Shown: piece after piece, positions 1 through 39,985 of the stretch | Layout of the letters: each line of letters opens with the position of its first letter | Position numbering within the stretch: position 1 is the stretch's first letter | Origin: Promethearchaeota archaeon | Lineage (GTDB): Archaea > Asgardarchaeota > Lokiarchaeia > Sigyniarchaeales > SOKP01 | Direction: 5' to 3' | DNA: 39,985 bases | NCBI GenBank assembly: GCA_029838195.1 | Contig: JALGVJ010000032.1 | Span: 1 to 39,985, forward strand | Translations under genes and position numbers: made by a program | The notes under the pieces: generated by a model | Told to the model about the DNA's origin: nothing | What the model saw: only the letters and a program-made list of their open reading frames with translations | Database searches by the model: none

Positions 1-113
1 CGTGATTTTCCGAAAGGGCGACGAAATCAGATGTGATATAATTGAGAGTTTTGTCGGCATGAGATTTAAAAAACTTAAAAAGCAAGCCAAATTATAAACT
101 TAAAAACACCCTC
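1..113. repeat. Left copy of window-terminal inverted repeat
   Basis: 1-113 aligns ungapped with the reverse complement of 39872-39984; 10 mismatches (positions 14,15,27,36,47,58,82,88,90,107). Confidence 0.95.
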
Positions 114-444
114 ATAAAAATTCCTTCATAAAAATATTAAAATTATGTACCTTAATACGAGAAAAAGAGATAAAACTTAATATATCTTACTTATCCTTAT
201 GATTAAGAAAAAGATTATAAAAAAATATCTTCCAAGAATTTATCTTTTTTAAAATTTTTCTTTAAATTTTTATTTTTCCATGATACATGATTCATTAAGG
301 AAGGAGCAATTTTAATTAACATGAATCTTACTGGAACGAAACCGGATTCTCCAATAATTATTATTTTTCTTTTTTTATTGAAAACTTTAGAATCTATTTT
401 CATTTCAATTGAGCCCATTTTTGATTGTCTAAAATTGATGGAAA

Positions 445-505
445 TTTAAAGGTCATTTATCGATAACCGACAAAAATTCACTCAATCCCGTCTCAAGTCA
501 TGGCG
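445..505 (+). repeat. Degenerate internal copy of the terminal-repeat core
   Basis: TTTAAA-ggTCATT-(9-nt insert)-CCGACAAAA-attca-CTCAAT resembles the right-end TTTAAA-tcTCATT-CCGACAAAA-cc-CTCAAT; CGAC at 468-471 is followed after 30 nt by GGCG. Confidence 0.55.
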
Positions 506-824
506 GATTAATTCATAGAAGTTATATCCCACAATAATGATTATTTTCATGCCCTTTCAGCATGAGAATGTTTTAACCCGCTGTAGAACGGGGTCACTCG
601 CTTTTCGACAAGATTCAAGGGGGGACAGATACGTTTTCCGTCGGGGGATCTTTAAAGATTTTTAAGATTCAGTTAAAAATAAAAAATTAACACTCCTCTA
701 AATTAGTAATAACGGAAATGAATAGGAAATAAATTTAAAATAGAAAACATGCATTATAGAGAAATATATTGCTATTTCAATTATAATGAAAATGAATTAA
801 ATTTAGCCACGAGGTTTCTTTTTA

Positions 825-3083
825 ATGAAAGACGCTGAATTAAAAATAATCAGAACGGCATGTCCGGCTCATTGTGGCATTGATTGCTGTGGTATTTTAG
901 CTCACGTGAAAGATGGAAGAATTATAAAAGTAGAACCGGCAGATTTTCCGAATGAAAGAGACAAAAGAATATGCTTGAGAGGTTTAGCAAGTATAGATAT
1001 TACATATCATCCTGATAGGTTAAAATATCCTTTAAAACGCGTGGGAGCGCGAGGGGAAGGAAAATTTGAACGCATTTCGTGGGAGGAGGCATATGACATC
1101 ATCATCCAAAATTTTCGTAAAATAGCGGACAAACATGGATGGCGATCGATAGGATGGGTCTTAGGAGGGCCGGGAGCAGGTACCACGAAATTTGGGGCAT
1201 ATTTGAGAATTGCAAGCTTAACACAATCAACTCGAGTAAGTGCGTGGGGATACGGCGATGCAGGCCTCCCTTGTGGAAGCCGAATCATTTTTGGCAGTCA
1301 TTTTCCCTATATTTACTTGTTTGGAAAATTCTGGCAGAGACAATACCCCGATCTATTAATCGTGTGGGGCACGAATCCTGCCGAGAGCATGCCCTTACAG
1401 ACCATGAGAAAAATATTAGAAGCTCGAGAAATCGGCACGCAAGTCGTCGTGATTGATCCCAGGTTCACGGTAACTGCCTCAAAAGCAGATGAATATATCG
1501 GACTGAAGCCTTCAACGGATAGCGCACTTGCTTTAGGATTAATGAACGTGATTTTTGAAAAAAATCTTCATGACGTGGATTTTATTCGACAGCATACCAA
1601 TGGACCGTATTTAGTGAGGTTGGACAATGGAAAACTCTTAAGAGGTAAGGATATAGGCGAGAAAAAAGCGAATGCCTATATCATCTGGGATGAAAAAAGC
1701 GATAGTGCTAAAAAGGTTCGAAGAAGCAACGTGATGGACGCCCGCCTAACAAGAGAGTTCGAAATTAATGGAATAAAATGCAAACCAGTATTACAACTCC
1801 TCATGGACCTTGCAAAAGAATACACGCCAGAAAAAACAGAAGAAATCACGGGTGTACCTGCCTCATTGATCAGAAAATTAGGAGAAAAAATCGGTTTGAC
1901 AAAAAATACCACGTTCTATACTTACATGGGATTTACTCGAACATATCATGGAGACATCTCATTAAGGAGCATGGCAACCGTAGCAAGCATTACCGGAAAC
2001 GTGTCCACGTCATTTACTTCGGGATACGTGCCCGCTGTTCTTAATTGGGATCCCTTTTTAAAAGCCGTTCCGGACAAGCCCTCTTTCCATCGATTAGGTA
2101 TTTTAAACCTTTATGATGCCGTGATTTCGGGAAAACCCTATCCCATTCGGGCAGCATGGTTTGCCTTTATCAATTTTTTGAATCAATGTGTTAATTGTAA
2201 TAAACTAATAAAGGAATTTTATCCTAAATTAGAATTCATAGTTCAAACGGAATTATTCATGACACCCAGTGCTCGATATGCTGACATAGTGCTTCCCGTT
2301 TGTTCTTTCTATGAGTTTTCCGATTTTCTCCCCCATCCTTATCCCTACCTTCAATTACAGCAAAAAATTATTGAACCTTTATACGAATCAAAATCCGATG
2401 TGACCATCGTTAAAGAACTCGCAGAAAGAATGGGTTTTGGAGAATATTTTAAAGGAGGCGAAGAAGGAATGATCGACTTAATCATGGATCATCCTTCTTT
2501 AGAAGGAATTACTCGGGAAACATTAAAAAATTCAGCAAAATTATTGAGAGAACTTCCCGAAGGAAGTAACTTTCCCCTAAATTTCTCCACTCCTTCGGGA
2601 AAAATTGAACTATATGCGGAACAGTTAGTAGAAGATGGCCAAGCTTTACCTGTTTATTTGGAACCAATCGAAGCACCGATTGGCTCAAAAAAGACAAAAT
2701 ATCCATTAACCTTCATTCAAGGCCACACGCGCTACAGAACTCATTCCATGTTTGCAAACGTGTCCCCCATTAAAGACCTTTCTTCAGAACCTTTCGTGGA
2801 GATAAATCCCATTGATGCGGTGGCTCGAAACATTCAAGATGGTGATGAGGTAATTGTTTTTAATGATAGAGGCCGGATGATATTAAAAGCGAAGCTCACT
2901 GAAAGCGTCGGCCCGGGAGTTATAAATATAACAGAAGGATGGTGGATCGATCAATTCAAAAAAGGAAGCGTCAATCATTTAACTCACGATATCATTAATC
3001 CCGTACAAAATAAAATCTATGAACCCAACATGCACATGAATGATGTGGCGGTAGAAATAATTAAAAAGGAGGAAGGAGTTTAA
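825..3083 (+). CDS. Molybdopterin (Mo/W-bisPGD) oxidoreductase catalytic subunit, DMSO reductase superfamily
   Basis: N-terminal Fe-S motif CPAHCGIDCC...ICLRG, RLKYPLKRVG, WGTNPAES, VIDPRFT, YADIVLP, TPSGKIE, C-terminal RTHSMF...INPIDA dinucleotide-binding domain; GAGGT upstream of the ATG. Confidence 0.93.
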   Translation: MKDAELKIIRTACPAHCGIDCCGILAHVKDGRIIKVEPADFPNERDKRICLRGLASIDITYHPDRLKYPLKRVGARGEGKFERISWEEAYDIIIQNFRKIADKHGWRSIGWVLGGPGAGTTKFGAYLRIASLTQSTRVSAWGYGDAGLPCGSRIIFGSHFPYIYLFGKFWQRQYPDLLIVWGTNPAESMPLQTMRKILEAREIGTQVVVIDPRFTVTASKADEYIGLKPSTDSALALGLMNVIFEKNLHDVDFIRQHTNGPYLVRLDNGKLLRGKDIGEKKANAYIIWDEKSDSAKKVRRSNVMDARLTREFEINGIKCKPVLQLLMDLAKEYTPEKTEEITGVPASLIRKLGEKIGLTKNTTFYTYMGFTRTYHGDISLRSMATVASITGNVSTSFTSGYVPAVLNWDPFLKAVPDKPSFHRLGILNLYDAVISGKPYPIRAAWFAFINFLNQCVNCNKLIKEFYPKLEFIVQTELFMTPSARYADIVLPVCSFYEFSDFLPHPYPYLQLQQKIIEPLYESKSDVTIVKELAERMGFGEYFKGGEEGMIDLIMDHPSLEGITRETLKNSAKLLRELPEGSNFPLNFSTPSGKIELYAEQLVEDGQALPVYLEPIEAPIGSKKTKYPLTFIQGHTRYRTHSMFANVSPIKDLSSEPFVEINPIDAVARNIQDGDEVIVFNDRGRMILKAKLTESVGPGVINITEGWWIDQFKKGSVNHLTHDIINPVQNKIYEPNMHMNDVAVEIIKKEEGV

Positions 3084-3085
3084 AA

Positions 3086-3664
3086 ATGAAAAAGAAATTT
3101 GTCATGATCATAGATCAAAACAGGTGTATCGGCTGCGATTGCTGCACGATCGCCTGCATAAAAGAAAATAATACTCCTTATCATTGGATCGAAGTAGAAA
3201 CCTTAAATACTCCTAACAAAGACACACCACAAGGGAAATTTCCCGAACTCACCATGGACTTTTTACCCAAGCTTTGCAATCATTGTAGCAATCCTCCATG
3301 CGTTTCAGCCTGTCCGGTGGATGCAATTCAAAAAAGGGAAGACGGAATTGTTGTCATCCTTAAAGAACATTGTGACGGTTGCCAATTATGCCTGAATGCT
3401 TGTCCTTACGGAATCATTAAATTCAATGATGTGATGAGCGTTGCCGAAAAATGCAATTTTTGCGTGCACCGTGTAGAACAAGGTCTTGAACCGTTTTGCG
3501 TGACTTGCTGTGAGGGGCAGGCGATCTATTTTGGGGATATAAACGATAAAGAATGTAAGATTTCTCAATTACTTGTTGAATTAAAAACATTTGTTCTCTT
3601 GCCCGAAAAAGGAACGGATCCCAACGTGTATTACATTCCTCCGCGACCAAGAAAAAGATTTTGA
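3086..3664 (+). CDS. Four-cluster [4Fe-4S] electron-transfer subunit (DmsB/NrfC-like)
   Basis: CIGCDCCTIAC, CNHCSNPPCVSACP, CDGCQLCLNACPY, KCNFC...PFCVTCC; begins 2 nt after the catalytic-subunit stop. Confidence 0.93.
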   Translation: MKKKFVMIIDQNRCIGCDCCTIACIKENNTPYHWIEVETLNTPNKDTPQGKFPELTMDFLPKLCNHCSNPPCVSACPVDAIQKREDGIVVILKEHCDGCQLCLNACPYGIIKFNDVMSVAEKCNFCVHRVEQGLEPFCVTCCEGQAIYFGDINDKECKISQLLVELKTFVLLPEKGTDPNVYYIPPRPRKRF

Positions 3665-4107
3665 ATCTTTTTTTTAATAACTCTTTTTATTTTACAATTA
3701 TCCTTTTTCTCGGTGTTATATCGATTAGATCATTTAATACTTCCTTGAAAAGGATGGTATTTTATACCTAATAATTATTGAGCACGATTTTTAAGTAGTT
3801 TAATATCAAATTATCTTTCTCTCGCTATTCTTGATAATAAAATTCGCCCTATTTGGCCTAAAAACTCGAGAAAAGTTAAAGATAACCCTTCACCAAAATT
3901 ATCAGTTCTTCTTAGAAAGAAAATTCCCAACACACGGCGACCACTTCATGCTTTAAATTAGTACAGATTTTCGAAATTTTGGGATATTAATTGTTTTTAC
4001 CAGCTTGGATGTTATTTCTTTTTTCGCTTTTGGTTATAAAAGAATCCAGTTTAATCACCAAAAAAAGAGATCCCGAATCACCAAAAAGGATTAAATCATT
4101 AATTATT

Positions 4108-5241
4108 CTATAGACGAGCTAAATAAGAACTCAGTCTTCCAATTTGAATTTTTAGAGATAAGTAGGTCCTCCATTTCGAACGATAAAGTGCTCTTAATAG
4201 AAACCACACCATGATAATTGTCAGAAAGATGGGAAACCATATTTCTGTCGCTTGAAATCGACCCAAGAATAAAAAAAATAAAATATTATGGGCAAGATAC
4301 ACGGTCAATGAATAATATGAAAAGTAAAACAAAAATCTACCATTCTTTTCATTATCAAACGCTCCTGCCTCTTCGAGCACTAACAAGCTCGTACTCAATA
4401 AAAGTAAAATGCCAAAGGTATACACGAACCAAGAAAAACTTCGACTAATCAAAAAATCGGGAAAATTAAATAACTCCGTACCGTGCCCATAGATATCTCC
4501 TAACCGCAATTGAAATACCATGCCAAAGAGTAATAAACAAGGGGCAATGAAGAGCGAAGGATATAGAATTTTTATCTTTAAGCTTTCCCTCCTCTCGAGA
4601 ATATCTTCATTATTATAAATACCATGAAGTAAATCTCCAATGATAGTGCCCAATAGAAAGAACGGAAAAAAACCTAGTATGAAATCCAAATCTAAAGAAT
4701 TATAGAGAAGGTAAAAAAGTATTCCTCGCATGCTTTTCTCGTTCTGATAAGGTAATAAGTAGATTAATAAGATTTGGTTTCCAATGAGAACAAGGATAAT
4801 GACGAGGATCCGGGTAATGATCGATTTGTTCAATAAGGGCCACGTTAAAAATAAAGAAACCGCAATCGTCAATAAAACGAACCAACTCCAGATTTTTCTC
4901 ATATCCCCGTAAAAAAAAGCCACCACCAAGTTATACGCCATGGCCAGGCCAAATATTAAAAAAGCCCGAATGAAATATTCTTTTCTAATGATATTATTAC
5001 TATTAAAATCCTCTAAAATCTTTGATTTTTCTTGCCGATTCCGCACGGAAAAACACGTACTAATCCCTGAAATAAAAATGAAAGCGGACGCCCCAATAGG
5101 GTCAAATATTGCAAAAAGTAAATGCGCAATGTACATGTCCTCTTCCGCCATCCACCACCCACTTAAATGCCCAATGAACATCCATAACATGCTTAAACCG
5201 CGAATGGTATCAATAGTTTTTATTCTCTTAATGGGCCCCAT
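4108..5241 (-). CDS. Polytopic membrane acyltransferase-like protein (DUF1624/HGSNAT-domain type)
   Basis: N-terminal RIKTIDTIRGLSMLWMFIGH, FIFISGIS, SYYSLTVYLAH; about 9-10 hydrophobic segments. Confidence 0.75.
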   Translation of the reverse strand: MGPIKRIKTIDTIRGLSMLWMFIGHLSGWWMAEEDMYIAHLLFAIFDPIGASAFIFISGISTCFSVRNRQEKSKILEDFNSNNIIRKEYFIRAFLIFGLAMAYNLVVAFFYGDMRKIWSWFVLLTIAVSLFLTWPLLNKSIITRILVIILVLIGNQILLIYLLPYQNEKSMRGILFYLLYNSLDLDFILGFFPFFLLGTIIGDLLHGIYNNEDILERRESLKIKILYPSLFIAPCLLLFGMVFQLRLGDIYGHGTELFNFPDFLISRSFSWFVYTFGILLLLSTSLLVLEEAGAFDNEKNGRFLFYFSYYSLTVYLAHNILFFLFLGRFQATEIWFPIFLTIIMVWFLLRALYRSKWRTYLSLKIQIGRLSSYLARL

Positions 5242-5481
5242 GAGCTTTTTTGTTTCATAATATTATTTTACTTACCATTTGGTTTATCAATATCTTCTAA
5301 TGAATAATTAAATCTTTCATGATAAAAAAGAACTGCATTTCATGAATGGTGCTTAATTAATGGAAATTATAATTAAAAATAAAAACTTGTAATCTAAAAA
5401 AATAGCAATATCCAAAATAAAAAGAAAGAAAAAAAATGAAAAAATAAAGGGAAAATTAAAGGATGAAATAAAAATAAAAAT

Positions 5482-5766
5482 TTATAAACCAAATAACAAA
5501 ATATTTTCAATAATATCATGAAACTTTTCTAAATTTTTCTCCCCAATCGCTTTATCTATATTGGTTTTTAAACTCAGGAGAGTACTTAACCCCTTTACAA
5601 CCGTGTTCTGGATAAAGCTATTAAATTGAGATTTCTCTAAATTCTTCTGCTTGAAATATTCCACCCGTTTCAACATTGCATCCATGTGTTCCTTCGCCGT
5701 GTTCGTCCTTAACTCCGTTAATTGTCTTATTTTTAACCCATCCTTCTCTATTATCTTTTGCGACAC
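5482..5766 (-). CDS. Hypothetical helical protein, probably co-transcribed with tes
   Basis: 94-aa ORF starting 18 nt after the tes stop, with an AGGTGA Shine-Dalgarno-like sequence upstream. Confidence 0.7.
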   Translation of the reverse strand: MSQKIIEKDGLKIRQLTELRTNTAKEHMDAMLKRVEYFKQKNLEKSQFNSFIQNTVVKGLSTLLSLKTNIDKAIGEKNLEKFHDIIENILLFGL

Positions 5767-5784
5767 GTTTTCTTCACCTTTACC

Positions 5785-7512
5785 TTATTTCTTTTTCTTT
5801 TCTCCTCCATTTCTCGCAACTTCTATCTCAACATTTAATTGCCCCGTGGTCGTGTCAAATTCACTCTTAATTTTCTCCGTGGCTTCCATCTTTATGATAT
5901 TCTCTATGATAGGACGATGGAGAGTATTCATCGTACAGAAAGGAATCTCTCTCACGGAACCATCCGGCATGGCAACTCCAAAATGTACTATACATCGTTT
6001 AACCCGATCAAGATCCATGTTATATGCATCCTGGAAATGCATGGAAGAGAGGAGTAGCGTGCCGTGAGTGAAGGAACTAATGCTCTCCCAATCGCCATTC
6101 AATAATAACCTGCTAAACATTTCCATTAACTTGCCGGGCTTCTTGGTGTATTGTAAAATTCCAAGCAAGAATCGTGCCCTCAATTGGGTCTTGTCAAGAA
6201 ATTGTAAGCCTTTATCTAAGGTTTTTCCAAAATCGCCCAGAATCCCCTCAAAGAATCTAATGGGCTCTTTCTCCCGATGCTTAATCCTCTCCCAAAATCG
6301 ATTGCTAAAATCTACAATCTTCAAGGGATCAAAATAATCCGTAATGGGTACCATCTTATTGCTGTCAGGCTCCGTGACCATATAGGTGGCAAAACCACAA
6401 TCCGGATGACACGTGAATTCGACGGGTTCTACATCTGCTAAGTAAGCAATTGCTCTCCCGAATTCCACTATCGTTGTTAGCGGATACCACGCATCGTCCA
6501 TACTAATAGCTCCACCTGTTTGACGCTCAATTTCCTTAATTACATCCGCATTGGTAATTCTCAAATCCTCCATTTCCTCCACTGTAATCCTTCCGCACAA
6601 TGATACGGGCTGAAAAGTAATTCCGCGCACCACGTCAATGTTGTCTAAGGCAAACTGAATGATGTTTCCGATTTCAATGTCCGTAATGCCCTTAACTACG
6701 GTGGCTACTAAATTAATGGAGGACAATCCCACTTTCCGGCAATTTTCCACCACCCGCATTTTGTATTCCATGAGATTCTTAATACCCCGCACTTTTTCGA
6801 GCGTGGCGTTATTGATGCCATCAAATTGCAAGTATAACGTGTCCAAACCCATTTCATATACTTTTTTCGTCCACTCTAATCCCCCGTTCTTTCTTTGGAA
6901 TCCATAGCCATTGGTAGCCACGATGACTTCTTTAAATCCTTTATCTTTTGCCATTTTGCAGATCTCAGGAAAATCTTTTCTGACGGTGGGTTCCCCGCCC
7001 GAGAACATGATGGCGGGAGGTGGTATGGGCTTATTTCTGAAGTGGTCCATGATTCTCTCAATTTCTTCGAGACTGGGTTCAATCCAATAGCCAGATTGCT
7101 TAACATTAGCAAAGCAGAAATGGCAGTTGAAATTACAGCGATTGGTTAAATCAATTAAGGCGAGTGAGCACGTGGATAAATGTTCTTGACAGAGGCCGCA
7201 ATTATAAGGGCAGCCTCTGGGGTCATCACCGATTAAATCTGGAGGATTTGCTTCACCATTTTTCAGAAATTGCCAGATAATTTTCCCGTTTTTGTCTTTT
7301 CTTTTATAATGAGTCCACTTGTAGTATTTTGAGCTAGAAGATATTTTATCTTTAAATTCTCCGTGTTCATTGCATTTTTTTTTCATCCAGATTTCGCCAT
7401 TTTCTTCGACGACTTCGGCGGGGATTCTTTCGAGGCATTCAGGGCAAACACTGAAGGTTTTTCGGTAGTAAGGCGTGTTTAAATATTCTTCTTCACTATC
7501 GAGATGATACAT
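5785..7512 (-). CDS. tes: Radical SAM tetraether lipid synthase (Tes/GDGT-MAS, MJ0619 family)
   Basis: Family-diagnostic cysteine sets: SVCPEC...KKCNEHG, GCPYNCGLCQEH, radical SAM CNFNCHFC, FSGGEPT, YLQFDG, FTCHPDCG, HFQDAYNMDLDRVKRC, IPFCTMN. Confidence 0.88.
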   Translation of the reverse strand: MYHLDSEEEYLNTPYYRKTFSVCPECLERIPAEVVEENGEIWMKKKCNEHGEFKDKISSSSKYYKWTHYKRKDKNGKIIWQFLKNGEANPPDLIGDDPRGCPYNCGLCQEHLSTCSLALIDLTNRCNFNCHFCFANVKQSGYWIEPSLEEIERIMDHFRNKPIPPPAIMFSGGEPTVRKDFPEICKMAKDKGFKEVIVATNGYGFQRKNGGLEWTKKVYEMGLDTLYLQFDGINNATLEKVRGIKNLMEYKMRVVENCRKVGLSSINLVATVVKGITDIEIGNIIQFALDNIDVVRGITFQPVSLCGRITVEEMEDLRITNADVIKEIERQTGGAISMDDAWYPLTTIVEFGRAIAYLADVEPVEFTCHPDCGFATYMVTEPDSNKMVPITDYFDPLKIVDFSNRFWERIKHREKEPIRFFEGILGDFGKTLDKGLQFLDKTQLRARFLLGILQYTKKPGKLMEMFSRLLLNGDWESISSFTHGTLLLSSMHFQDAYNMDLDRVKRCIVHFGVAMPDGSVREIPFCTMNTLHRPIIENIIKMEATEKIKSEFDTTTGQLNVEIEVARNGGEKKKK

Positions 7513-8054
7513 TATTAAGTTCCACCATAAATTTTAATAAATAATGTAATTATTCAACTTAAGCAGTGATTTATTTAAAAAGATATTCCAACTTATAATA
7601 ATATTATTATAATTAGGAAAGTTTTCTATTTAAAGATTAGGCGCCTTCTTTTTTAAAAATATGGGGGGCATTTAAATAGGAAGGATTCGTTTTTTCTAAT
7701 TCATGATGAGACGCGAGCGAGTTATTATAATTTTTTTTAAAGGTTCTAAAAAATTTGTTAAAGGTGATAAAACTCGGAGATTCAATACACCCTTTATGAA
7801 TTAGGTTTGAAATTTTGGGAATGGCTTTTAATTTTTTTATTCAAATTCGGGAATAATAGATAAATCCGCTTGAAAGAAAGATTAAACTCATGAAACTTGA
7901 AGAACATTCGCTTGTTAATTCCGAGTAAGCCTTTTTAGAAATGAAATTTAAACTATTTATATTACATGGCATCAAATTAAAATTAATAATTGCAGGTTCA
8001 AGTATGAATTCAGCATGATAAACATGAAAAAAGATACTATAGAGGGAGATTAAA

Positions 8055-9452
8055 ATGAGTAAAGATGAGGAGCTAAAACACGAGACTCATGGTTTTCTTG
8101 AAATTAATTCCTATAGTTTATCCCAAGGGCTTATTAATTTCAATACGGGTGCGTTTGGCGCCTACGTGTTCTTTTTCTACGAAACGGAGGTTTTATTGAA
8201 CGTGGTGTTGCTTGCGATTGTTTTCTCGATTTATAGCGTTTGGGATGCGATAAACGATCCTCTTTTGGGCAGTCTAATGGATAGGCCTTATAGATTTACT
8301 CGAAAATGGGGGCGTAGGTTTCCTTTTGTGGCGATGGCCATTTTTCCATGGGGTATTTTATACATTTTTTTGTTTACTCCACCAGCTGCGGATGTCATGG
8401 GAGGATGGTCAATTTTTATCTATTTGTTAATCATTTTAATTGCGTATGACATGTTCTACACGATTTGGGACGTATCTTCTGAAGCCTTATTTCCTTTTAA
8501 ATTTCGGGATTATAAGGAGCGTAGAAAAGTGTCGGGCACGAAAGCTTTTTGGGGAATCATTGGATTGGTTTTAGGAATGGTTGTTCCCCCGCTTTTCGTG
8601 GAGTATGGAAACAAGCAATCTTATATAACCCAAGCAATTATTTTGGGTATTATTGCCGTCATCGTGGGCGCTTTAATGTTGCCAGGGCACGTAGAAAGTA
8701 AGGAGATAATAGAAGAGTATCTTACAACATGGGAAATGCGGGGAAAGAGGGTGAGCTTCATTAAAGCTCTTGCTGAAACGTTAAAAAAGAAGAATTTCTT
8801 ATTGCTCATTTTATTGCATTTCACTTATACAATTTTGACAGGATTATTAATTGCTTCCTTGAATTATTTCATCAGGTATAATTTGAGAGAAGATCCGGAC
8901 GTGTTTCTCATTATCATGTTAGGTTACATCATCGTGAGCTTGAGCACCATTCCGCTCTGGATCAAAGTGTCTCATAAAATAAATGATAACAGGAAAATGA
9001 CGTTCATTGGTTCTATTGCAATGGCCTTAGCCACGTTGCCATTATTTTTTGCGAATTCGGTCCTCATAGCGGCCTTTATTGGAGCATTTATCGGGTTAGG
9101 AGGGGGGATTTATTTTGTCATGCAAGATGCGATTTTTGCCGATGTTTTAGATGAGAACGTGGTCTTGGATGGCGAACGTAGAGAAGGCACGTATTTTGGC
9201 GTGAAATTTTTCTTAGGGCGATTTGCCGGCGTTTTTCAATCATTCGTGTTAGCGTTCATTCACGTAACCACGGGATTTAATCCGGAGGTGGAAGAGCAAA
9301 CACCGTTGGCACTATTGGGAATTAGAATGCATTTAGCTCTCATTCCAGCAGTCGCCTTGCTTCTTGGAGCGATAATTTTTTATAAATGGTATGATTTGAC
9401 ACCTGATAAGATCAAATCCATTCGAGCAGAATTAATAGAATCCAAACTTTAA
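8055..9452 (+). CDS. MFS transporter, GPH/MelB (MFS_2) family
   Basis: WDAINDPLLG...KWGRRFPF, DVLDE...RREGTYFG; about 12 hydrophobic segments. Confidence 0.9.
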   Translation: MSKDEELKHETHGFLEINSYSLSQGLINFNTGAFGAYVFFFYETEVLLNVVLLAIVFSIYSVWDAINDPLLGSLMDRPYRFTRKWGRRFPFVAMAIFPWGILYIFLFTPPAADVMGGWSIFIYLLIILIAYDMFYTIWDVSSEALFPFKFRDYKERRKVSGTKAFWGIIGLVLGMVVPPLFVEYGNKQSYITQAIILGIIAVIVGALMLPGHVESKEIIEEYLTTWEMRGKRVSFIKALAETLKKKNFLLLILLHFTYTILTGLLIASLNYFIRYNLREDPDVFLIIMLGYIIVSLSTIPLWIKVSHKINDNRKMTFIGSIAMALATLPLFFANSVLIAAFIGAFIGLGGGIYFVMQDAIFADVLDENVVLDGERREGTYFGVKFFLGRFAGVFQSFVLAFIHVTTGFNPEVEEQTPLALLGIRMHLALIPAVALLLGAIIFYKWYDLTPDKIKSIRAELIESKL

Positions 9453-9656
9453 ATTTTCTTTATTTTTTATTTTTTTTTTCCCTTGATATAATCCATCTTA
9501 TAATTAAAGGAAAAAATTTTAGTGATTAGAAGCGAACTTTAGTTCGCAAGGAATTTTTTTTCCATTTTTTTGTTAGTTTACCATATAAAGTCTCGCGGTT
9601 CTTGAAAATCAATAAAGCATTAATAAAATAAAAAAAAGAATTAAAATTATTGAAAA

Positions 9657-10100
9657 TTATTTTTTTCTGCCATAGAGTAGATATGCGAGAATATAGGTTT
9701 CCAAGATCATGAGGGGATAAAAATATCCAGTGGTGGTTTCTAACCAGAAATAAGAAATAAGATTCCTGTTTTGAAATACTCCGAAGAACAAAGCATCTAA
9801 TAAAAAATTTAAACCGCAAACAATGCTACCGAGCACTATTGCATCAATAGCCCAAGAATCGGCAATAATCGGGTGTTTTGATTCATATTTCCATAAATAG
9901 AGGAGGAGGACAAACAGAGAAACAAGGGCATTAACGATGAGCAAGGAAATGTACAATTGAATATTTGGATTAGGAATGGGTTGATTTGTAGAATAATCGA
10001 AAAAGGCGGCTCCGACAATCAGGAATGCCCAAATCCAAGAGGCGATACCTAAGATCACGCTTAATAGTAATGATTTTTTATTCATGCTTTTCACGCTCAT
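9657..10100 (-). CDS. Hypothetical membrane protein with about 4 TM helices
   Basis: Hydrophobic ORF. Start re-assigned to the ATG at 10100 (MSVKSMNKK) because the track's start at 10175 overlaps the 43-aa gene. Confidence 0.75.
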   Translation of the reverse strand: MSVKSMNKKSLLLSVILGIASWIWAFLIVGAAFFDYSTNQPIPNPNIQLYISLLIVNALVSLFVLLLYLWKYESKHPIIADSWAIDAIVLGSIVCGLNFLLDALFFGVFQNRNLISYFWLETTTGYFYPLMILETYILAYLLYGRKK

Positions 10101-10141
10101 TTTTAGTAAATGATCGGTAATAATACCGCCATGGATGACAA

Positions 10142-30868: not shown

Positions 30869-30942
30869 TTTTTTTTCCTTCTTGAATTATAAAACAATAA
30901 AAAAGAATGGCAAAAAAAAAAAAAAACCAAACTAAATCGTGA

Positions 30943-31719
30943 TTAGGTAAATTTTGCCCGAAATTCCTTGATGAATTTCGTCTTATCTTCATGGACATAC
31001 CAATCGGAAGCCTCTTTTTCAATCTCATATGCTTCATGATACGACATGGAAGGAAAATGATTCACGCATAATTTAATTGCATTTAAAACCGTTTGCTGTT
31101 TGGTGGATAAAAATCTTGCTACTTCCAATGTTCTATTTAGCAACTCATCCCGTGATTCTACAACCTCATCAATTAATCCGATTTCTAAGGCTTTATCGGC
31201 TTCTATTTTTTGAGCAAACATGAGTAGTTTTTTAGACCAATTGATACCAAGAATCTTTGAAAATAAGATAGTGCATCCTGTTCCGGGAAAGATTCCAGAA
31301 TAAATCTCAGGCATTTGGAAAAAACTATTCTTAGTAGCTATTTTATAATCACAGCATGTTAAAAATACCACGCCCTCCCCCATGGTACGTCCATTGACTG
31401 CGCATAAGGTGGGCTTTCCATTAAATAATAACTCACAGACACTCGCTGCAGTGGCTTCCAATTCTTTTACAGCGGCATGGTCACTTCCATCAATAAATTT
31501 TAAATCCATGCCCGTACTGAAAGAGTCTCCATTATTAGTTAGAATAATCCCTCTAATGCCCTCCTCCTCTTGGCAAAATTCAATTGCTTTTTTGAGATTT
31601 CTCAATTGCTCAATCGTAAATGCATTGGCTCTATGGACTCGGTTAAGAGTGATCACACCAAATCGTTTTTGTACCTTGAATTCAATGTATTCTCCAAAAT
31701 CAAAATTTTTTGATTTCAT
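30943..31719 (-). CDS. Enoyl-CoA hydratase/isomerase (crotonase) family protein, paralog of 29207-29992
   Basis: ITLNRVHRANAF, FSTGMD, AVNGRTMG, FQMPE, ALEIGLIDEVV. Confidence 0.9.
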   Translation of the reverse strand: MKSKNFDFGEYIEFKVQKRFGVITLNRVHRANAFTIEQLRNLKKAIEFCQEEEGIRGIILTNNGDSFSTGMDLKFIDGSDHAAVKELEATAASVCELLFNGKPTLCAVNGRTMGEGVVFLTCCDYKIATKNSFFQMPEIYSGIFPGTGCTILFSKILGINWSKKLLMFAQKIEADKALEIGLIDEVVESRDELLNRTLEVARFLSTKQQTVLNAIKLCVNHFPSMSYHEAYEIEKEASDWYVHEDKTKFIKEFRAKFT

Positions 31720-31841
31720 GTGAGGTAAAAAGAAAAGATGCTTTAAAAATGAAAAAGATTAATAGGAAATGTCTCACATCAACATATATTTTAAGAATAA
31801 AATGATCTTAAAAAAAAATAAAAAATTAAAGAAAAAGTAAT

Positions 31842-33239
31842 TTATAATTTCAATTGTCTTATTCTTTCTTGATGCTCTATTACCTTGTGAGGCTTTAATT
31901 CGCAGAATTTCCAATAGACAAGAGTACCAAATAAAATACATATCATGGGAACGAGTGCCAAATGAACGTGAATTCCCCATACGGCTTCCTGGGTTTGAGT
32001 CGCCGAACCTTCTACAAATCCCGTTAGCTCATGGGTGATGGCGAAACTAAAACTTTGTATTATCAAACCCAATCGTCCAAAAAATTGTTGTATGCCCGTG
32101 AGCGTCCCTTCTTCTCGCTTTCCATATATAGCAACATGTTCATCGATTAGATCTGACATTACCGGAAATATCATTGACCAAAATCCACCAAGGGAAATCC
32201 CCCAAAAGAAAATGTTAATAATAATTCCGATATAGGATTCAAGAAAGATTAGAGGTGCCGTGAATATGCCCATGAGTAAGCCGGATATGATAGTAACTTT
32301 TCTATTATCATTGGTCTTTTTAGCTAACCATACCCAAAAGGGTATTGAAATTAGCGTGCCTATTAGCATGCTTGCCATCATTAACGTAGTTGCTCTTGCC
32401 TCCATCTCTAAAATAAATCTAACAACATAGGGTATTGAGCCGGTCATCGAAGGTACAAGTGTCTGATACATGAGATAAAGAACAATGTATGAGGCGAATG
32501 ATTTTTGTTTGAATGCAATGATTACTTGTTTAACAAAGGATTCTCGTTCTTTTTTTTCAATAGTTTTGGATAAATATCGTTCAATTATTTCTGGATCTTC
32601 TCGAAATCCTGGAATGGCTAAAAGCATTGTCACCAAGCTGACGAGCAAGCAAACAATTGCTTGAAGAACATAAGATTCCAAATCTCCGAACGTGATGATT
32701 AATGGAGGTAAAATTGAGCCTAATGCAACGCCTATCACTCCTAAAGCAATTTGAATTCCCGTTGCCGTTCTTCTCTCATCAACTGAGCGGAATTTATCGG
32801 GAAAAAGCGCTTGAAAATTAACAAAAAACAACGTATGAAAGGAATCAAAAAGAACAGTCGCAAAAATTAGCCAAAAAAACAAGGTCCAAGCTCCTGTTTC
32901 AGTTTGGGGATTCACTCGAGGTGGGGAAAATAAAAGAAAATAACAAATTCCCAGAGGAATTCCTCCAATGAGAATCCATGGGAAGCGTCGTCCCCATTTA
33001 CGGGTAAATTTAAAGGGTCGATTGGTTAAATATCCAAATAACGGATCATTAATGGCGTTATATATCGCGAAAATCGTTAGAGCCGTGCTGATATACCAGA
33101 TATTCAAGCCCACTTCACTTTCATAGAAGAAGAAGACGAAAGTATTGAACGCCATGAGGAGAAATTCACGAGACAAGGATCCAAATCCGAAACTTGCCAT
33201 GTTTAGCTTGCTATGCCTTATTTCAATATCGCTTTCCAT
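31842..33239 (-). CDS. MFS transporter, GPH/MelB (MFS_2) family
   Basis: YNAINDPLFGY...KWGRRFPW, DLIDE...KREGTLTG; visibly similar to 8055-9452. Confidence 0.9.
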   Translation of the reverse strand: MESDIEIRHSKLNMASFGFGSLSREFLLMAFNTFVFFFYESEVGLNIWYISTALTIFAIYNAINDPLFGYLTNRPFKFTRKWGRRFPWILIGGIPLGICYFLLFSPPRVNPQTETGAWTLFFWLIFATVLFDSFHTLFFVNFQALFPDKFRSVDERRTATGIQIALGVIGVALGSILPPLIITFGDLESYVLQAIVCLLVSLVTMLLAIPGFREDPEIIERYLSKTIEKKERESFVKQVIIAFKQKSFASYIVLYLMYQTLVPSMTGSIPYVVRFILEMEARATTLMMASMLIGTLISIPFWVWLAKKTNDNRKVTIISGLLMGIFTAPLIFLESYIGIIINIFFWGISLGGFWSMIFPVMSDLIDEHVAIYGKREEGTLTGIQQFFGRLGLIIQSFSFAITHELTGFVEGSATQTQEAVWGIHVHLALVPMICILFGTLVYWKFCELKPHKVIEHQERIRQLKL

Positions 33240-33741
33240 TTATAATCCTTTATTTTTAATTCAAATTAAAAAATTTAAAATGTTAAATAGTGAATAGGAT
33301 GTACTATTATATATAATTATCTTTCATGAAGCAATTGTTTAAAGAATTCAAAAGGTTCAGAACTTAATTAAAATTAAATTTCATGAATCCAAATTTAATG
33401 AATGAGAAAGTCAAATATATTCCATTATCCATGAAAAATCGTTATTGTAAGTTGTTTTCCTATTATTTTTTTTATTGAAATTACCCTTTCTTCTTGCTCT
33501 CTATAATAATAAAAAAAAGTTAATAATATAAACGCATGTATCCGTCAAGAGAAAATCCGTCAAGGAGTTTCCATTCGACTCCTGTTAAAAAATGTACCTC
33601 AACTCGTGACTCGATAGTGGTAAAAAATTATCAAAGGCGGTGGGATCTTTAATTCCAATGAAATCCCTGTAGCAGAGCAAGCATTTTTTTTTAAATTTAT
33701 TTGGTTTTAAACAAGAAATGGATTTTTCTCTAACGAGCCCA

Positions 33742-34392
33742 TCATTTAAGAGATTTCCATACTTCAATCATTAGCATGGCGGTCCAAGTGCAAAAGCCAT
33801 ACACGACAATTTTTTGCATAATAACATTCATGAACATGAAAAATCCAAAGATGAACAGGAGAATGAGGATTGAAAAGCCAATGCTAATGATGGAATATAT
33901 AATCGAATAATTCTTGTTGATCAAAATGGCGATGGAATAGACGATTATGGCTATAGCAAATAACAAGAAAAAATAGATCGTGGTAATCACGTGTTCGATT
34001 AGGTGTGTATCAGCAGCGTATATAGCAAGAAGCATGAGCAAGGGGGCAGAAATGATTCCTAAAATCGATCCAATCCGGCTTAAAACCTTCATGAGTAAAG
34101 TATCTCGAAACAGCATGGTAACTAAAATCCAAAAATCAATGAGAGCAAGTCCGGCAACCACACAGGAAATGACAAATAACGTTCTCGAAATAGGATTAGG
34201 AACCCCATTTCTCGTAACGGTGGTTCCTAAATCACTCAAATAATGGCCAATAAAATTATATCCATCGGGATATGCAAGCATGGCAATGAACGTGATAATA
34301 ATGAATTGGAGTGCTCCGGCAATTGCGAATATACACAATAACTTCATTCTTGAAGAGGCATTTTTAATTTCATTCATGGGTAAGATTTTCAT
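33742..34392 (-). CDS. Membrane protein, DUF998-like
   Basis: YPDGYNFIGHYLSDLG motif, conserved His (IEH), about 6 TM helices. Confidence 0.65.
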   Translation of the reverse strand: MKILPMNEIKNASSRMKLLCIFAIAGALQFIIITFIAMLAYPDGYNFIGHYLSDLGTTVTRNGVPNPISRTLFVISCVVAGLALIDFWILVTMLFRDTLLMKVLSRIGSILGIISAPLLMLLAIYAADTHLIEHVITTIYFFLLFAIAIIVYSIAILINKNYSIIYSIISIGFSILILLFIFGFFMFMNVIMQKIVVYGFCTWTAMLMIEVWKSLK

Positions 34393-34531
34393 TAGTTTAT
34401 TTTATTTAATTTAATATTCTTTTTCCAAAGAAAAAAAGTTAACCTTTTATACAATATCTAAGTAGTTATTATAAAGAACATGAAAAAATGCTGGGAAAAC
34501 TAATTAAAAAATAGATGCAAGAAATATTTGG

Positions 34532-36631
34532 ATGCAGGAAATAAAAAAAAAGAACCGAGCTGAAAAAACATTACTCAAGAAGGATTTAAAGGCTTGTTCC
34601 AATTTGAAAACGGTGTTTAATGAGATAAATCAACACCTTTATGGTAAATTGAAACATACCGATACGGATACACGAACGCGTTCAAAAGAGATAATTAATC
34701 TATTATCATGTAAATTAATAGATGAAGTTTCCAAAAAGCCGGAGGAACACGTGGATTTTTGCTTGAGAAAAGGAGAAGAACAAGAAAGTGTAGCTCGCAG
34801 GATCAAAACATTTTTTAAAAATCAAGTAAAAAAAAAATATTCGGAAGTGATCAATGAAAACGAGCAGATCACGTTAAATGACGAGTTAATTTTTCTAATC
34901 GTGAAAGAATTGCAAGGATACTCTTTATTAAATTCTTCTACAGATGTATTAAAAGATGCTTTTGAAGTATTTGTCGGGAAAATCTTAAAAGATGAGAGAG
35001 GCCAATTTTTTACACCATCTAATGTCATTAAATTCATGGTTAGTTATTTGAAACCGGAACTTAATTCTAAGATTTTGGATCCGGCTTGCGGTCATGGGGG
35101 CTTTCTATTGGAAATAAAAGAATATTTATGGGAAAAATGCAAGAAACAAGGGATTTCTCATGATAATGAACAAGAGATGAAAAAAAAGATCGTTTCTAAC
35201 TTATATGGTATTGATAAGGATTTACTTCTTGCACGCACCTGTAAATTATATTTAGAAATTTTGAGTGGAGGTTCAGCAAAAATTTTTTGTGAAGATTCCT
35301 TGGATCCCATCAGCTATTATAAAGAAGCAAAAAATTACATAAAAAATGAGGAATTTGACCTCATTTTGACTAATCCTCCGTTCGGAAAAACCATTCCAAT
35401 AGATGATCAAAAGATCTTGTGTAATTATGAACTTGCACATTCTTGGATAAATAAAAACAATGGGTGGGAAAAACAAGGTACCTTGAGCAAGAAACAACCC
35501 CCACAGATATTATTCATTGAACGATCTATTCAACTTTTAAAAGAAGGAGGGAAATTGGGGATCATTTTACCCGAAGGACTGTTTGGAAATCCCACGGATC
35601 GTTATATTTGGCATTTTTTAAAAAAAAATGGTAAAATTTTGGGAATAATAAGCTTGGATCAAAATACTTTTCAACCCTATACATGTAATAAGGCGAGTAT
35701 TTTATTTTATCAGAAAATGAAACATCCTCCAAGCGACTATGATATTGATTTTGCCATTGTAGAGAATGTGGGACATGATAAAGATGGAAAAATTCTCTAT
35801 CAATTGAATAAAAACGGAACGGTTAAAATAAATTCTTCCGGGACTCCCATGATTAATGATGATTTGATCGATCTTCACGAGAAAATAGAGAAGGCCGAAC
35901 CTTTTAATGTTGATAAACAACAAAAAATTTTCAAGCTAAAGCTGAGTCAAATTAAAAATGATATTTTCATACCCAATTATTACATTTCTGTAGAAAAAAC
36001 TCTGCAATCCTTGAAAAAAAACCAAAATTTCTTGTTATTGTCATTCAAAGAATTAGTAGAAAAAAAGATCATTTATACGAGAAAAAATGGATATTTACCT
36101 CGAGGGGATGAAATTGGCTCAAAACTTTATGGATTGGGGGATGTGCCTTTTATAAGAACCAGCGATTTTTTTAATTGGGAAATTAATTTAAAATCAAATA
36201 AAAAAACCTCTGAAGAAGTATATAATCTATATAAAGAAAAGCAAAATATTGAAGTAGGAGACATTTTACTGGTAAAAGATGGAAGTGCCAATTTAATAGG
36301 TAATACCGCTTTCGTCACGGAATTGGATACTAAAATCATCATTCAAAGCCATATTTATCAAATAAAAGTGTTAAAAAACAACATGAAAATTGACCCCTAT
36401 CTCCTCTTATATCTTCTAAATTTAGACGTGGTACAAAAACAATTTCAAGCCATAACCTTCATACAAGGCACTATTGCGACGATAGGAAATCGCATCATGG
36501 AAGTCATCCTACCCGTACCCTCAGATCCGAAGAAAAGAGAAGAAATTTCCGGACAAGTAAAAAAAATTATCGATACGAAAACAAAACTTAGAAAAAAACT
36601 CTTAAAACTCTCCCTTGAAGGCTTGCTTTAA
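34532..36631 (+). CDS. N6-adenine DNA methyltransferase (HsdM-like) fused to a C-terminal specificity (HsdS/TRD-like) domain
   Basis: GQFFTP, DPACGHGGFL (motif I), NPPF (motif IV), GIILPEG; C-terminal VPFIRTSD...GDILLVKDG...IGN. No nuclease motif recognised. Confidence 0.85.
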   Translation: MQEIKKKNRAEKTLLKKDLKACSNLKTVFNEINQHLYGKLKHTDTDTRTRSKEIINLLSCKLIDEVSKKPEEHVDFCLRKGEEQESVARRIKTFFKNQVKKKYSEVINENEQITLNDELIFLIVKELQGYSLLNSSTDVLKDAFEVFVGKILKDERGQFFTPSNVIKFMVSYLKPELNSKILDPACGHGGFLLEIKEYLWEKCKKQGISHDNEQEMKKKIVSNLYGIDKDLLLARTCKLYLEILSGGSAKIFCEDSLDPISYYKEAKNYIKNEEFDLILTNPPFGKTIPIDDQKILCNYELAHSWINKNNGWEKQGTLSKKQPPQILFIERSIQLLKEGGKLGIILPEGLFGNPTDRYIWHFLKKNGKILGIISLDQNTFQPYTCNKASILFYQKMKHPPSDYDIDFAIVENVGHDKDGKILYQLNKNGTVKINSSGTPMINDDLIDLHEKIEKAEPFNVDKQQKIFKLKLSQIKNDIFIPNYYISVEKTLQSLKKNQNFLLLSFKELVEKKIIYTRKNGYLPRGDEIGSKLYGLGDVPFIRTSDFFNWEINLKSNKKTSEEVYNLYKEKQNIEVGDILLVKDGSANLIGNTAFVTELDTKIIIQSHIYQIKVLKNNMKIDPYLLLYLLNLDVVQKQFQAITFIQGTIATIGNRIMEVILPVPSDPKKREEISGQVKKIIDTKTKLRKKLLKLSLEGLL

Positions 36632-36675
36632 GTGTCATTCAATTTGATCTATTTACACGGGTGAATGCGAATTCT

Positions 36676-37158
36676 TTACCAAAACTCGCGGAAAAATTGC
36701 TTAATGAGAGCCTTGAAATTCGCTTCAAAGCGTTCTATGGAACTAAAAAAACCATCCACTCGTTTTTTATATATTTCTTTTCTGAGATCCACAAAAGGAG
36801 ATATGTTCGAAGAAGTACGATGCTGATTAAAAAAAACGCTCTCGTATTTACTTAAAATTGAATTAAAAAAATCATTTATCTTAATAAATTCCCGGAAAAA
36901 ATAATTATCATTATAAATTTCACTCCACGTTTCCTTGGAACATGATAAATCTTCTTGATTTTCTTTTTGATTGAGGATGGCGTTGTATGCATCCTGTAAT
37001 TCAATAAATTTTTCATTTGCCTTTGGATCCCCTTTATTTAAATCAGGATGATATTGTTTGGCTAATTTATGGTAAGCTAATTTTATTTCATCTTCAGAAG
37101 CTCCTTCCTTGACTCCTAATATTTCAAAATATTTTTGGAAGCCTTTCATGGGAATCAT
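36676..37158 (-). CDS. J-domain (DnaJ-like) protein
   Basis: YFEILGV...[18 protein letters not shown]...FIELQDAY; no zinc-finger or substrate-binding domain. Confidence 0.88.
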
Positions 37159-37403
37159 GCAAAAAATTTCATGTTTAATTCTCGATTAATTATAAATATT
37201 CTAACTTTACTAAAATCTTAAAAAATAATTCATGAATTTAAATTTTAATTATGATCAGCCCATTATTTTTCTTTTTTTTAAATTATATATCATTTTTAAA
37301 AGATGAAATAGTTTATTTGAATAACTATTATAAAATTTTAAATATAAAGTTATCAAATTATTTAATGTAAATATAATAAAAATTATCGAATTAGGTAATT
37401 CTA

Positions 37404-39188
37404 ATGAGTGAAGAAATACCAACACCTTGGTTTAATTTTTGGCCAGAAGGAGTACCAAAACATATTGATTATGAAGAAATTTCCCTTGGCGACTTATTAA
37501 GAAAATCTGCAGAAAAATATCCGAAATCCCAAGCCCTTTTTTTTGAGGGCTGGCGTTGTACCTATGAAAAATTAGATTTATTAGTTGATCAATTTGCAAC
37601 GGCTCTCTTAAAAATAGGGGTTAAAAAAGGAGATACTATTGCTATTGATTTACCAAATTCCCCTCAATTTGTAATTGCTTATTATGCGACCGTTAGATTG
37701 GGAGCAATAGTAAATCCAATTATACCTTTACATAAATTTGTTGAAATTGCATATCAAATAAATGATTCTAAAAGTAAAATTTTAATAATTCTAGACGCAC
37801 TTTATGAAGGATACTTGAAAGGAAAAGATCTTTCTAAAATGAAAACATTAAAAAGTATTATTTTAACGGGAATAACAGAATATCTCCCAAAAATTAAAGC
37901 GATTTTAGGTACTGCTCTTGGAAAAATCCCCCACATGAAAAAAAGTGCTTGGCCAGCCCGTGTTGGAAATATTGACTTTTATAAATTTCAAGAATTGCTT
38001 CAAAAAGGTATTCCTATTGATGTGCCGGATGTTAAAATCAACCCTAAAACTGATACCGCAACCCTCATTTATACTGGCGGAACTACAGGGATTCCAAAAG
38101 GCGTAGAACTCACGCATTATAACCTTTCTGTAAATGCACAACAAGGAATTGCTTGGATTGAAGGACAATTGCCCGAAACTAAGAAATATCGGGGTAAGGG
38201 AGGAGTAGGGTGCTTGATTCCTTTTGGACATGTTTTTGGCATTTCCACGGGAATGAATTTAGGAATTGCAAATGCATACAAACTCATTCTATTCCCTTCT
38301 CCTCCAGAGAAGAGATCAGATGTATTAAAATATCTCATGAAGGAACAAGCAATGTATATTCCAGCAGTTCCCACGCTTTACAATCAAATAAATCAAGACC
38401 CTGATTCTAAAAAATATAAGGGGAAATTGACATCATTAATTGCTTGTTTAAGTGGAGGTGCTGCTTTACCCGCCGAAGTAAAAAGAACTTTTGAAGATTT
38501 AACGGGAGCCTTAATTATTGAAGGTTATGGTGCGAGCGAAACATCTCCTATAGTTACTGGTGGACCGTTTCATCGTTATAAGATTAACTCTACCGGACTT
38601 CCCATGCCGGATACATTGATAAAAATTGTAGATGCCGAAAAAGGTACAAAACTTTTAGAGATTTGTCCTAAGGAAAACTGCAATGAATGTGGAGAAAAAG
38701 AGGCTGAAAAATATATTGGAGAATTATGCGTAAATGGGCCTCAAGTCATGAAAGGTTATTTCAATAAACCTGAGGATACTGCTAATGCATTAAGAAAAGA
38801 TTCACAAGGAAGAACATGGTACTATACTACGGACATTGCTTGTATTGATAGAGAAGGTTATCTTCATATAAAAGACAGAAAGCGGGATATGATTAAATAC
38901 AAAGGACATGGTGTTTTTCCGGCAGAAGTTGAAAATTTAATGTATCAATACGAGCCTATAAAAGAAGTGGGCGTGATTGGAGTACCACACCCCGAAGGTC
39001 CTGGAGAAACTATTAAAGCTGTGGTTTCATTAAAAGACGAATATAAAGGAAAAATTACAGAGAAGGACATCCAAGAGTGGTGCAAAGAAAACATGAGCCC
39101 ATATAAATATCCTCGTATAATTGAAATAATTGATGAACTTCCTAAAACTCTTGTTGGGAAAATACTTCGAAGAGAATTACGGAAGTAA
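37404..39188 (+). CDS. Long-chain acyl-CoA ligase (AMP-forming, FadD-like)
   Basis: YTGGTTGIPKG, EGYGASE, GPQVMKGY, DRKRDMIK, LPKTLVGKILRRELR. Confidence 0.92.
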   Translation: MSEEIPTPWFNFWPEGVPKHIDYEEISLGDLLRKSAEKYPKSQALFFEGWRCTYEKLDLLVDQFATALLKIGVKKGDTIAIDLPNSPQFVIAYYATVRLGAIVNPIIPLHKFVEIAYQINDSKSKILIILDALYEGYLKGKDLSKMKTLKSIILTGITEYLPKIKAILGTALGKIPHMKKSAWPARVGNIDFYKFQELLQKGIPIDVPDVKINPKTDTATLIYTGGTTGIPKGVELTHYNLSVNAQQGIAWIEGQLPETKKYRGKGGVGCLIPFGHVFGISTGMNLGIANAYKLILFPSPPEKRSDVLKYLMKEQAMYIPAVPTLYNQINQDPDSKKYKGKLTSLIACLSGGAALPAEVKRTFEDLTGALIIEGYGASETSPIVTGGPFHRYKINSTGLPMPDTLIKIVDAEKGTKLLEICPKENCNECGEKEAEKYIGELCVNGPQVMKGYFNKPEDTANALRKDSQGRTWYYTTDIACIDREGYLHIKDRKRDMIKYKGHGVFPAEVENLMYQYEPIKEVGVIGVPHPEGPGETIKAVVSLKDEYKGKITEKDIQEWCKENMSPYKYPRIIEIIDELPKTLVGKILRRELRK

Positions 39189-39560
39189 AAATCAAATTGA
39201 AAAATTATTTTTTTTTATCGAATATAAAAAAGAGATAATTCCATAAATCTTTTAAAAGGTAATTTATTAAAGATTAAGAGAAATTGCATCATTTGTAATT
39301 TAAATTAAATTATTACATGTCCCAGTAATTTTAATCGAAGTTCTCTATTTAAAATTCTTTTTTTCATTTATGAATCTAAAACTTGTATAAAAGGAAATGA
39401 TAAGGTTGTTAAAATGAATTAGTATTTTACTCTTAAACCGTTGAAATGTTAAATCAAAAAAATGATTAAGAAATGGGAAAAAAAATGTACCTTGAATAAT
39501 AAATGGGAACATGAAATGATGTTTTTTTTTACTAAAATTAAAAAATGCATCAAAAATCAT

Positions 39561-39851
39561 TCACTCTTTTTTAATTATGGGAATTAATTGAATGGCTCCA
39601 TAGGGACACCTTTTGAAACATACAGAACAACCTCCACAAGATTTTTCCGTAATAATGGTAATAGCCTTTCCCTCAGAATTATATGCTCTTATTTTTAAAG
39701 GACAAAATTTGATACATGTTCCACAAGATCTACATTTCGAAATTATAGTAAAAGCAGAATATTTTATACTTGATAATTCATTAATTTTTTTCTGTAAACT
39801 CTTAGAAGCAGATTTCATGCTTTTATGGGGGGAAGAGGTGCTTCTTTCCAA
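39561..39851 (-). CDS. 2x[4Fe-4S] ferredoxin
   Basis: CRSCGTCIKFCP and CGGCSVCFKRCP; start codon uncertain (TTG 39851 or ATG 39818). Confidence 0.82.
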   Translation of the reverse strand: MERSTSSPHKSMKSASKSLQKKINELSSIKYSAFTIISKCRSCGTCIKFCPLKIRAYNSEGKAITIITEKSCGGCSVCFKRCPYGAIQLIPIIKKE

Positions 39852-39871
39852 AAAATAATTATTTATTATTA

Positions 39872-39985
39872 GAGGGTATTTTTAAGTTTATAATATAGCT
39901 TGTTTTTTAAGTTTTTTAAATCTCATTCCGACAAAACCCTCAATTATAACACATCTGGTTTCGTCGCCCCCTCGGAAAATCACGT
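39872..39985. repeat. Right copy of window-terminal inverted repeat
   Basis: Reverse complement of 1-113 (103/113 identical) plus one extra terminal base. Confidence 0.95.

Follow-up and report, generated by a model that had tools for sequence, protein, structure and literature searches.

Insertion sequences (ISs) of the IS1182, IS5 and IS4 types carry a single open reading frame (ORF) of ~490 amino acids (aa) with a DDE_Tnp_1 domain, have terminal inverted repeats (TIRs), make a short (4-bp) target duplication and occur in many copies. The repeats of IS4/IS5-type elements are mostly 15-30 bp long. In Asgard archaea ISs are common, with a mean of 8.5 per genome (PMC13343696). We analyzed a stretch of 39,985 nt, referred to here as the window, which makes up all of contig C31, one of 94 contigs in a 4.5-Mb Asgard (Promethearchaeota) metagenome-assembled genome (MAG), and which has an inverted repeat at its very ends. 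We conclude with high confidence that it is unique chromosomal DNA lying between two independent, oppositely oriented insertions of one multicopy IS that shares the features listed above. The terminal repeat belongs to a dispersed family, contig ends in the assembly carry a 114-nt overlap signature, the two types of IS end are linked via an intact transposase, the left end has a continuation in public contigs, and the right end is matched by synteny in a relative.

A repeat search of the window found arms 1-113 and 39872-39984 to be ungapped inverted copies of 113 nt, 91% complementary, and pairwise alignment of the two ends gave 10 mismatches and an identical outer 13 nt, TCGGAAAATCACG. An earlier note on this DNA had described the arms in these terms, together with an outward-facing TTTATAA at each end, and both descriptions held: at either end the motif is placed 16-22 nt from the inner edge and faces out of the window. 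There was no comparable second inverted pair in the window, the next longest being AT-rich and 46-47 nt long (72-74%). The features on which the argument turns are the following.

1-113, minus strand: left inverted repeat (IRL), the terminal 113 nt of IS copy 1, with its tip at 113 and the element leaving the contig leftward; assigned by identity to C25 and to Logan contigs.
39872-39985, plus strand: IRL, the terminal 114 nt of IS copy 2, which is another sub-variant, with its tip at 39872 and the element leaving the contig rightward.
92-98, minus strand: TATA-like TTTATAA reading into the IS, 16-22 nt from the tip, a near-invariant block; twin at 39887-39893 (plus strand).
19-56, minus strand: CGAC and GTCG blocks separated by N30, with an ATTAT centre (IS nt 58-95); twin at 39929-39966.
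114-117, no strand: ATAA, putative 4-bp target-site duplication (TSD) of IS copy 1 (TTAT on the IS strand); predicted partner C58:114-117, from 4 bp only.
39868-39871, no strand: ATTA, putative 4-bp TSD of IS copy 2; partner TAAT at C64:7075-7078.
118-39867, no strand: ordinary chromosomal DNA, 39.75 kb, between the two IS insertions, as judged by GC, gene content and the context in relatives.

A genome search with the terminal 130 bases gave 28 matches, and at 12 contig ends the sequence breaks off 112-115 nt inside the IS tip. Every copy has a sharp inner boundary at the tip, GAGGGTATTTTTAAGTTTATAAT, beyond which the flanks are unrelated, and copies internal to contigs, including those on large chromosomal contigs, run far past the point at which the window is cut. 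The ends fall into two types that have their first 50-96 nt in common. Type A, found at both window ends and on C25, C30, C38, C50, C71, C73, C87, C91 and C94, consists of a leader followed by an ORF reading away from the tip, the ORF end being ...ILIWDCQFIRSN. Type B, found on C33, C43, C46, C49, C58, C62, C64, C78 and C80 and in several remnants, has an ORF that reads toward the tip and contains ILADAGPYS and IRMEIERQF. At the left end of the window, positions 1-115 are identical to C25:238-352 (115 nt), where the copy goes 237 nt deeper into the IS. The first 70 nt of the right end are those of the IRLs on C30, C38, C50, C91 and C94, and the C50 copy goes 486 nt into the IS; the right end holds 114 nt, the modal assembly overlap, and its exact twin is absent from the bin.

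The two end types proved to be the halves of a single element. Complete elements with the same tip occur in relatives of the same family (1838 bp on G016:C134 and 1823 bp on G005:C126); their TIRs measure 96 nt (82%) and 69 nt (71%), and their intact 489-aa ORFs combine the type-A and type-B parts. Against a public protein of 489 aa (P0033), identity is 90% for the type-A fragment (residues 68-253) and also 90% for the type-B fragment (residues 359-489). Metagenome contig L036 is unbroken: starting at IS nt 69, it passes through A-type sequence (98% to C50), the gene and B-type sequence (100% to C43), reaches the right tip and goes on into the C90 flank. Since L036 is continuous through both end types, the element measures ~1837 bp: a left end with tip GAGGGTATTTTTAAGTTTATAAT, a leader of ~295 nt, the 489-aa transposase gene, ~72 nt, and the right end. 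The IRL and the right inverted repeat (IRR) align over ~96 nt, with the first 47 nt ~92% alike. An open frame ending RDFPKGRRNQM-stop that seemingly enters the left end of the window was rejected as coincidence, as the IS gene starts ~295 nt from the tip and in the opposite direction.

Full-length relatives reach 40.8 and 37.5 bits with the DDE_Tnp_1 model (PF01609), the cutoff of which is 23, and PF01609 is listed as a precomputed domain of P0033. Public homologues are named IS4/IS5 family transposase and come from Promethearchaeota; most sit on contigs of ~1.8-2.3 kb, like collapsed repeats. As candidate sites of the catalytic D, D and E residues, the motifs ILIWDCQF, ILADAGPYS and IRTEIERQF were noticed by eye in the translations, and a PDB sequence search with the transposase gave no meaningful match. 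The IS is an uncharacterised, multicopy member of the known DDE_Tnp_1 superfamily.

We compared window positions 1-2500 with Logan contigs of four hydrothermal-vent metagenomes; their cover of this part has gaps (for example 1513-1848), which are uninformative. A loose end at window position 3 carries on with IS interior sequence found on C25, and a 1870-nt Logan contig spans the whole left terminus. At 113/114, Logan contigs attach several different flanks, among them the flanks of the copies on C1, C25 and C87. In the best run, word depth was 4-5 times higher for IS-end contigs (15.8-17.9) than for the unique part (3.3-4.5); these depths are not copy numbers, and the higher depth is consistent with multiple copies. 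The ends of the window thus extend into an IS, the left directly and the right by sequence identity and synteny, an outcome that the earlier note had named in advance as speaking against a bounded segment.

The complete elements in relatives are flanked by 4-bp direct repeats (ATTT and TTAT). In this genome we paired IS ends by maximum matching, asking whether the 4 bases just beyond an A tip equal the reverse complement of the 4 just beyond a B tip. Eight of the 10 A-ends matched B-ends at 4 bp, and none did at 5 or 6 bp. As controls, most shifted offsets gave 0-2 matches, and offsets 15-17 gave 4-5, probably owing to T- and A-runs; there was no target-site consensus apart from T-runs upstream and A-runs downstream. 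The pairing predicts the order C58-IS-C31-IS-C64. On the right, the last two genes of the window, for an acyl-CoA synthetase and a ferredoxin, have homologues on contig G003:C105 of a relative, and these are directly followed by a homologue of the last gene of C64, in the predicted orientation and with just a 35-nt spacer where this genome has the IS. This gene order independently confirms the predicted join of the right ends of C31 and C64. On the left, C58 is the predicted neighbour; five relatives contained no close homologue of its methyltransferase, and nothing in this genome matched the region upstream of the oxidoreductase homologue in G003.

Should C58 be the left neighbour (C58:113-120 with window 114-140), a class I methyltransferase gene would have the IS immediately before its ATG (TTAT, then G) and would be separated from an AT-rich upstream region that lies on C31 at present. 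In that arrangement the transposase gene would read toward the methyltransferase gene, and read-through could express it.

The IS also appears to have moved recently. Its right end on L036 (1766-1849) abuts sequence corresponding to C90:34639 with a flank identity of 100%, and C90 is uninterrupted there in this genome (C90:34636-34643). An occupied site on L036 and an empty one at C90:34639 argue for recent transposition in a closely related population.

A separate question is why both ends of the window stop at the same point. For each contig end we determined how long a terminal stretch is repeated without change somewhere else in the assembly. A terminal overlap of exactly 114 nt was found at 66 of the 188 contig ends, and because only ~12 of these come from this IS, the overlap is a property of the assembler. 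It is the overlap of a de Bruijn assembler with k of ~115, which was unable to pass the IS and ended each flanking contig k-1 nt past the IS tip; with sharing beginning at the tip, a contig keeps 113-114 nt. Such a stop accounts for both the ~113-nt length and the equal cut point at the two ends. Both IS copies turn their left end to C31, and the result is an inverted repeat pointing outward at the contig ends. This behavior is the same as that of de Bruijn contigs ending at repeats elsewhere, where k-1 overlaps likewise give a fixed stop inside the repeat and exact sharing, and we see no difference in kind. The earlier note had argued that two copies collapsing on each other cannot explain the ends, and this was correct, each end being identical or nearly so to other copies.

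The DNA between the repeats has nothing unusual about it. GC content is 33.8% over 118-39867 versus 33.5% for the genome, and homologues of the end genes of C31 have a chromosomal context in relatives. We searched the 30 window ORFs of at least 90 aa against Pfam. Matches included molybdopterin oxidoreductase, CdhC, CODH epsilon subunit, CooT, Alba and NAPRTase, along with Orn/DAP decarboxylase, MFS transporters, enoyl-CoA hydratases, N6 DNA methylase and acyl-CoA synthetase; 6 of the 30 had no Pfam match. No transposase, integrase, replication or viral gene was detected by Pfam among these ORFs; the enclosed genes are, as had been claimed, of a metabolic or housekeeping core type with no mobility gene. 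This absence follows from the outward direction of the repeats: the window is the DNA between two elements, and a transposase gene would lie just past each end.

Several points weigh against this account. No full-length copy of the IS is assembled in the genome, and we infer the full length of the two flanking copies. The continuation in public contigs was obtained for the left end, and the right end relies on sequence identity and synteny. The left neighbour, C58, depends on a single 4-bp match. The left overlap between C31 and C25 is 115 nt and not the modal 114, a one-base discrepancy with the k-1 account. Finally, no TSD was seen in metagenome contigs L037 and L053, which may be chimeric assemblies across repeat copies; in the metagenome loci, automatic TIR alignment over-extended into AT-rich flanks, and tips were set by motif.

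Two inverted copies of one IS bracketing other genes is the geometry of the composite transposons Tn5 and Tn10, and an IS that has apparently been active recently, as the occupied L036 site and empty C90 site indicate, could in principle mobilize such a segment or allow it to invert by recombination between the copies. We consider either origin of the arrangement very improbable. Each IS apparently has its own 4-bp duplication (TTAT/ATAA for copy 1, ATTA/TAAT for copy 2), and the outer flanks do not match: had the whole moved as one unit, ATAA on C58 and TAAT on C64 would have to be reverse complements of each other, and they are not, a point that depends on the predicted neighbours. On the left the TSD argument is partly circular, the partners having been chosen by TSD, whereas C64 is confirmed by synteny. 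The gene order across the right IS is ancestral, as seen in G003; the two IRLs are different sub-variants, 91% alike; and the segment has the GC content of the genome. Moreover, with ~10 long copies in 4.5 Mb, each of them breaking the assembly, an IRL/IRL arrangement is expected in about one quarter of contigs that are IS-bounded at both ends. The locus therefore differs from Tn5 and Tn10 in its separate target duplication per IS, its unmatched outer flanks and its ancestral gene order on the right. The earlier suggestion of a segment invertible or mobilized in trans accordingly found no support, as regards mobilization as a unit, in target duplications or synteny. Recombination between the inverted IS copies could nonetheless flip the 40-kb, cdh-bearing segment in part of the population.

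Less probable again, and in our judgment scarcely credible, is the idea that the 113-mers are self-standing short elements, such as a MITE (miniature inverted-repeat transposable element), a noncoding RNA (ncRNA) gene or a recombination site, and not part of an IS. The sharp inner boundary, the many copies, the TATA-like motif and the conserved CGAC-N30-GTCG dyad would all suit such an element. However, wherever a copy is not cut short by the end of a contig, it goes on into the IS leader and the transposase gene or its remnants, and among the genome copies no two tips were found within a few hundred bp of each other, as for a MITE. Nor do the repeats look like an RNA gene: they had no match to an Rfam family, no tRNA was found, and their folding is ordinary. 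The earlier note had proposed a dispersed repeat at which the assembly breaks, and that part stands on the 28 matches and 12 equal cuts; its view of this repeat as an undescribed MITE, ncRNA or recombination site does not, the repeat being the end of a transposase-encoding IS.

The conserved blocks bear on the same point. An alignment of 29 left and right ends of the IS group was ungapped over 100 columns and showed an invariant tip (nt 1-14), the near-invariant TATA-like block at IS nt 16-22, and further invariant blocks at nt 34-36 (TTT), near nt 72-76 (ATTAT) and at nt 92-95 (GTCG); CGAC at nt 58-61 is strictly invariant in nt 60-61 only. The outer half had been thought to form a hairpin, a proposal that fails on two counts. 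The folding energy of the 113-mers was no better than that of shuffles (z -0.4 to -1.2), and the CGAC-N30-GTCG dyad showed no covariation, with 70.7% paired cells versus 71.3% in shuffles. Because the dyad never varies and its extensions lack covariation, the CGAC and GTCG blocks probably represent a subterminal transposase-binding sequence and not a hairpin. The TATA-like block, from its position and conservation, is a candidate promoter of the transposase gene. Should both TATA-like blocks be promoters, an antisense RNA would start from the right end and cross the transposase gene at its 3' end.

That the window is a linear plasmid or virus whose real ends carry terminal inverted repeats, or that its ends are artefacts of adapters or chimeras, is suggested by an inverted repeat lying exactly at both ends of a 40-kb contig and is almost certainly wrong: the same termini, cut alike, end 10 other contigs, internal copies occur on large chromosomal contigs, public contigs pass position 1, which together with the 12 equal cuts refutes the linear molecule entertained earlier, Pfam found no replication or viral genes, the GC content is that of the genome, the flanking genes are syntenic with the chromosome of a relative, and the same sequences appear in independent metagenomes and so are not adapters.

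C25:238-415 is a nested insertion, in which one IS copy (tip at C25:350) lies inside the left end of a second copy (tip at C25:414); of the outer copy only the first 63-64 nt are left on that side, and the break adjoins the invariant CGAC block. C40:33951-34394 and C60:21313-21758 are solo right-end remnants with the same truncation, which follows ...GTTAAGACAAAAATT and lies ~446 nt from the right tip; the DNA beyond their shared breakpoint is unrelated. A diverged (71%) remnant on C76 aligns with these two over about the same first 445-550 nt, and with C70 over ~620 nt. Contig C33 (2.1 kb) has as its ends 206-nt inverted copies (18-223 and 1881-2086) of another repeat family, which also occurs on C17, C26, C48, C79 and C87; the IS remnant that C33 carries is interrupted by one of these copies. 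On C87, positions 130175-130394 and 127448-127663 form a 220-nt direct repeat (90%) 2.5 kb apart, one copy lying just past a decayed IS copy and the other downstream of an MFS gene.

Within the window, two features fall outside the IS question. Positions 34532-36631 encode a 699-aa ORF with N6_Mtase and Eco57I-type methylase domains, which on its domain content is a possible restriction-modification enzyme of type IIG or of the orphan kind. Positions 9480-9570, between an MFS gene and the next ORF, are a ~90-nt repeat that contains GCGAAC-TTTA-GTTCGC and recurs 24 more times in the genome, with an identity of 93-100% in 19 cases. This repeat fits a gene-less mini-element, in which case the window holds a non-autonomous mobile element and no mobility gene.

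The practical message is one of caution: inverted repeats at both ends of a contig from a short-read MAG, of a length near the assembler's k, point to an assembly break at a repeat and not to a bounded element. An uncharacterised active IS accounts for about a dozen assembly breaks in this Asgard genome, and its 4-bp target duplications, combined with synteny, provide scaffolding hints for C58-IS-C31-IS-C64 and six or seven other joins. The finding is otherwise an ordinary one and adds little to the biology of Asgard archaea, in which ISs are known to be common.

Where the element belongs among described ISs was assessed with curated models. The best NCBIfam model for its transposase is that of IS1182 (NF033551), whose length of 488 is close to the 489 aa found here. 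P0033 scored 49 bits and two relatives 48.7-49.1, far below the equivalog cutoff of 270, and the IS1634, IS982, IS5 and IS1380 models scored lower than the IS1182 model. A literature search on the IS1182 family turned up no description of its features that was of direct use. We consider it possible, and on balance doubtful, that the IS is the type of a distinct family or subgroup restricted to Promethearchaeota; the idea arises because its scores lie far below every curated model, its ends are unusually long and of fixed geometry, and an inward-facing TATA-like block and an invariant CGAC-N30-GTCG dyad are present at both ends. Set beside the IS1182, IS5 and IS4 types, with which it has its overall plan in common, the IS fits no curated family model and differs in its long ends (~96 nt) with invariant blocks at fixed spacing and in the ~295-nt leader that precedes its start codon.

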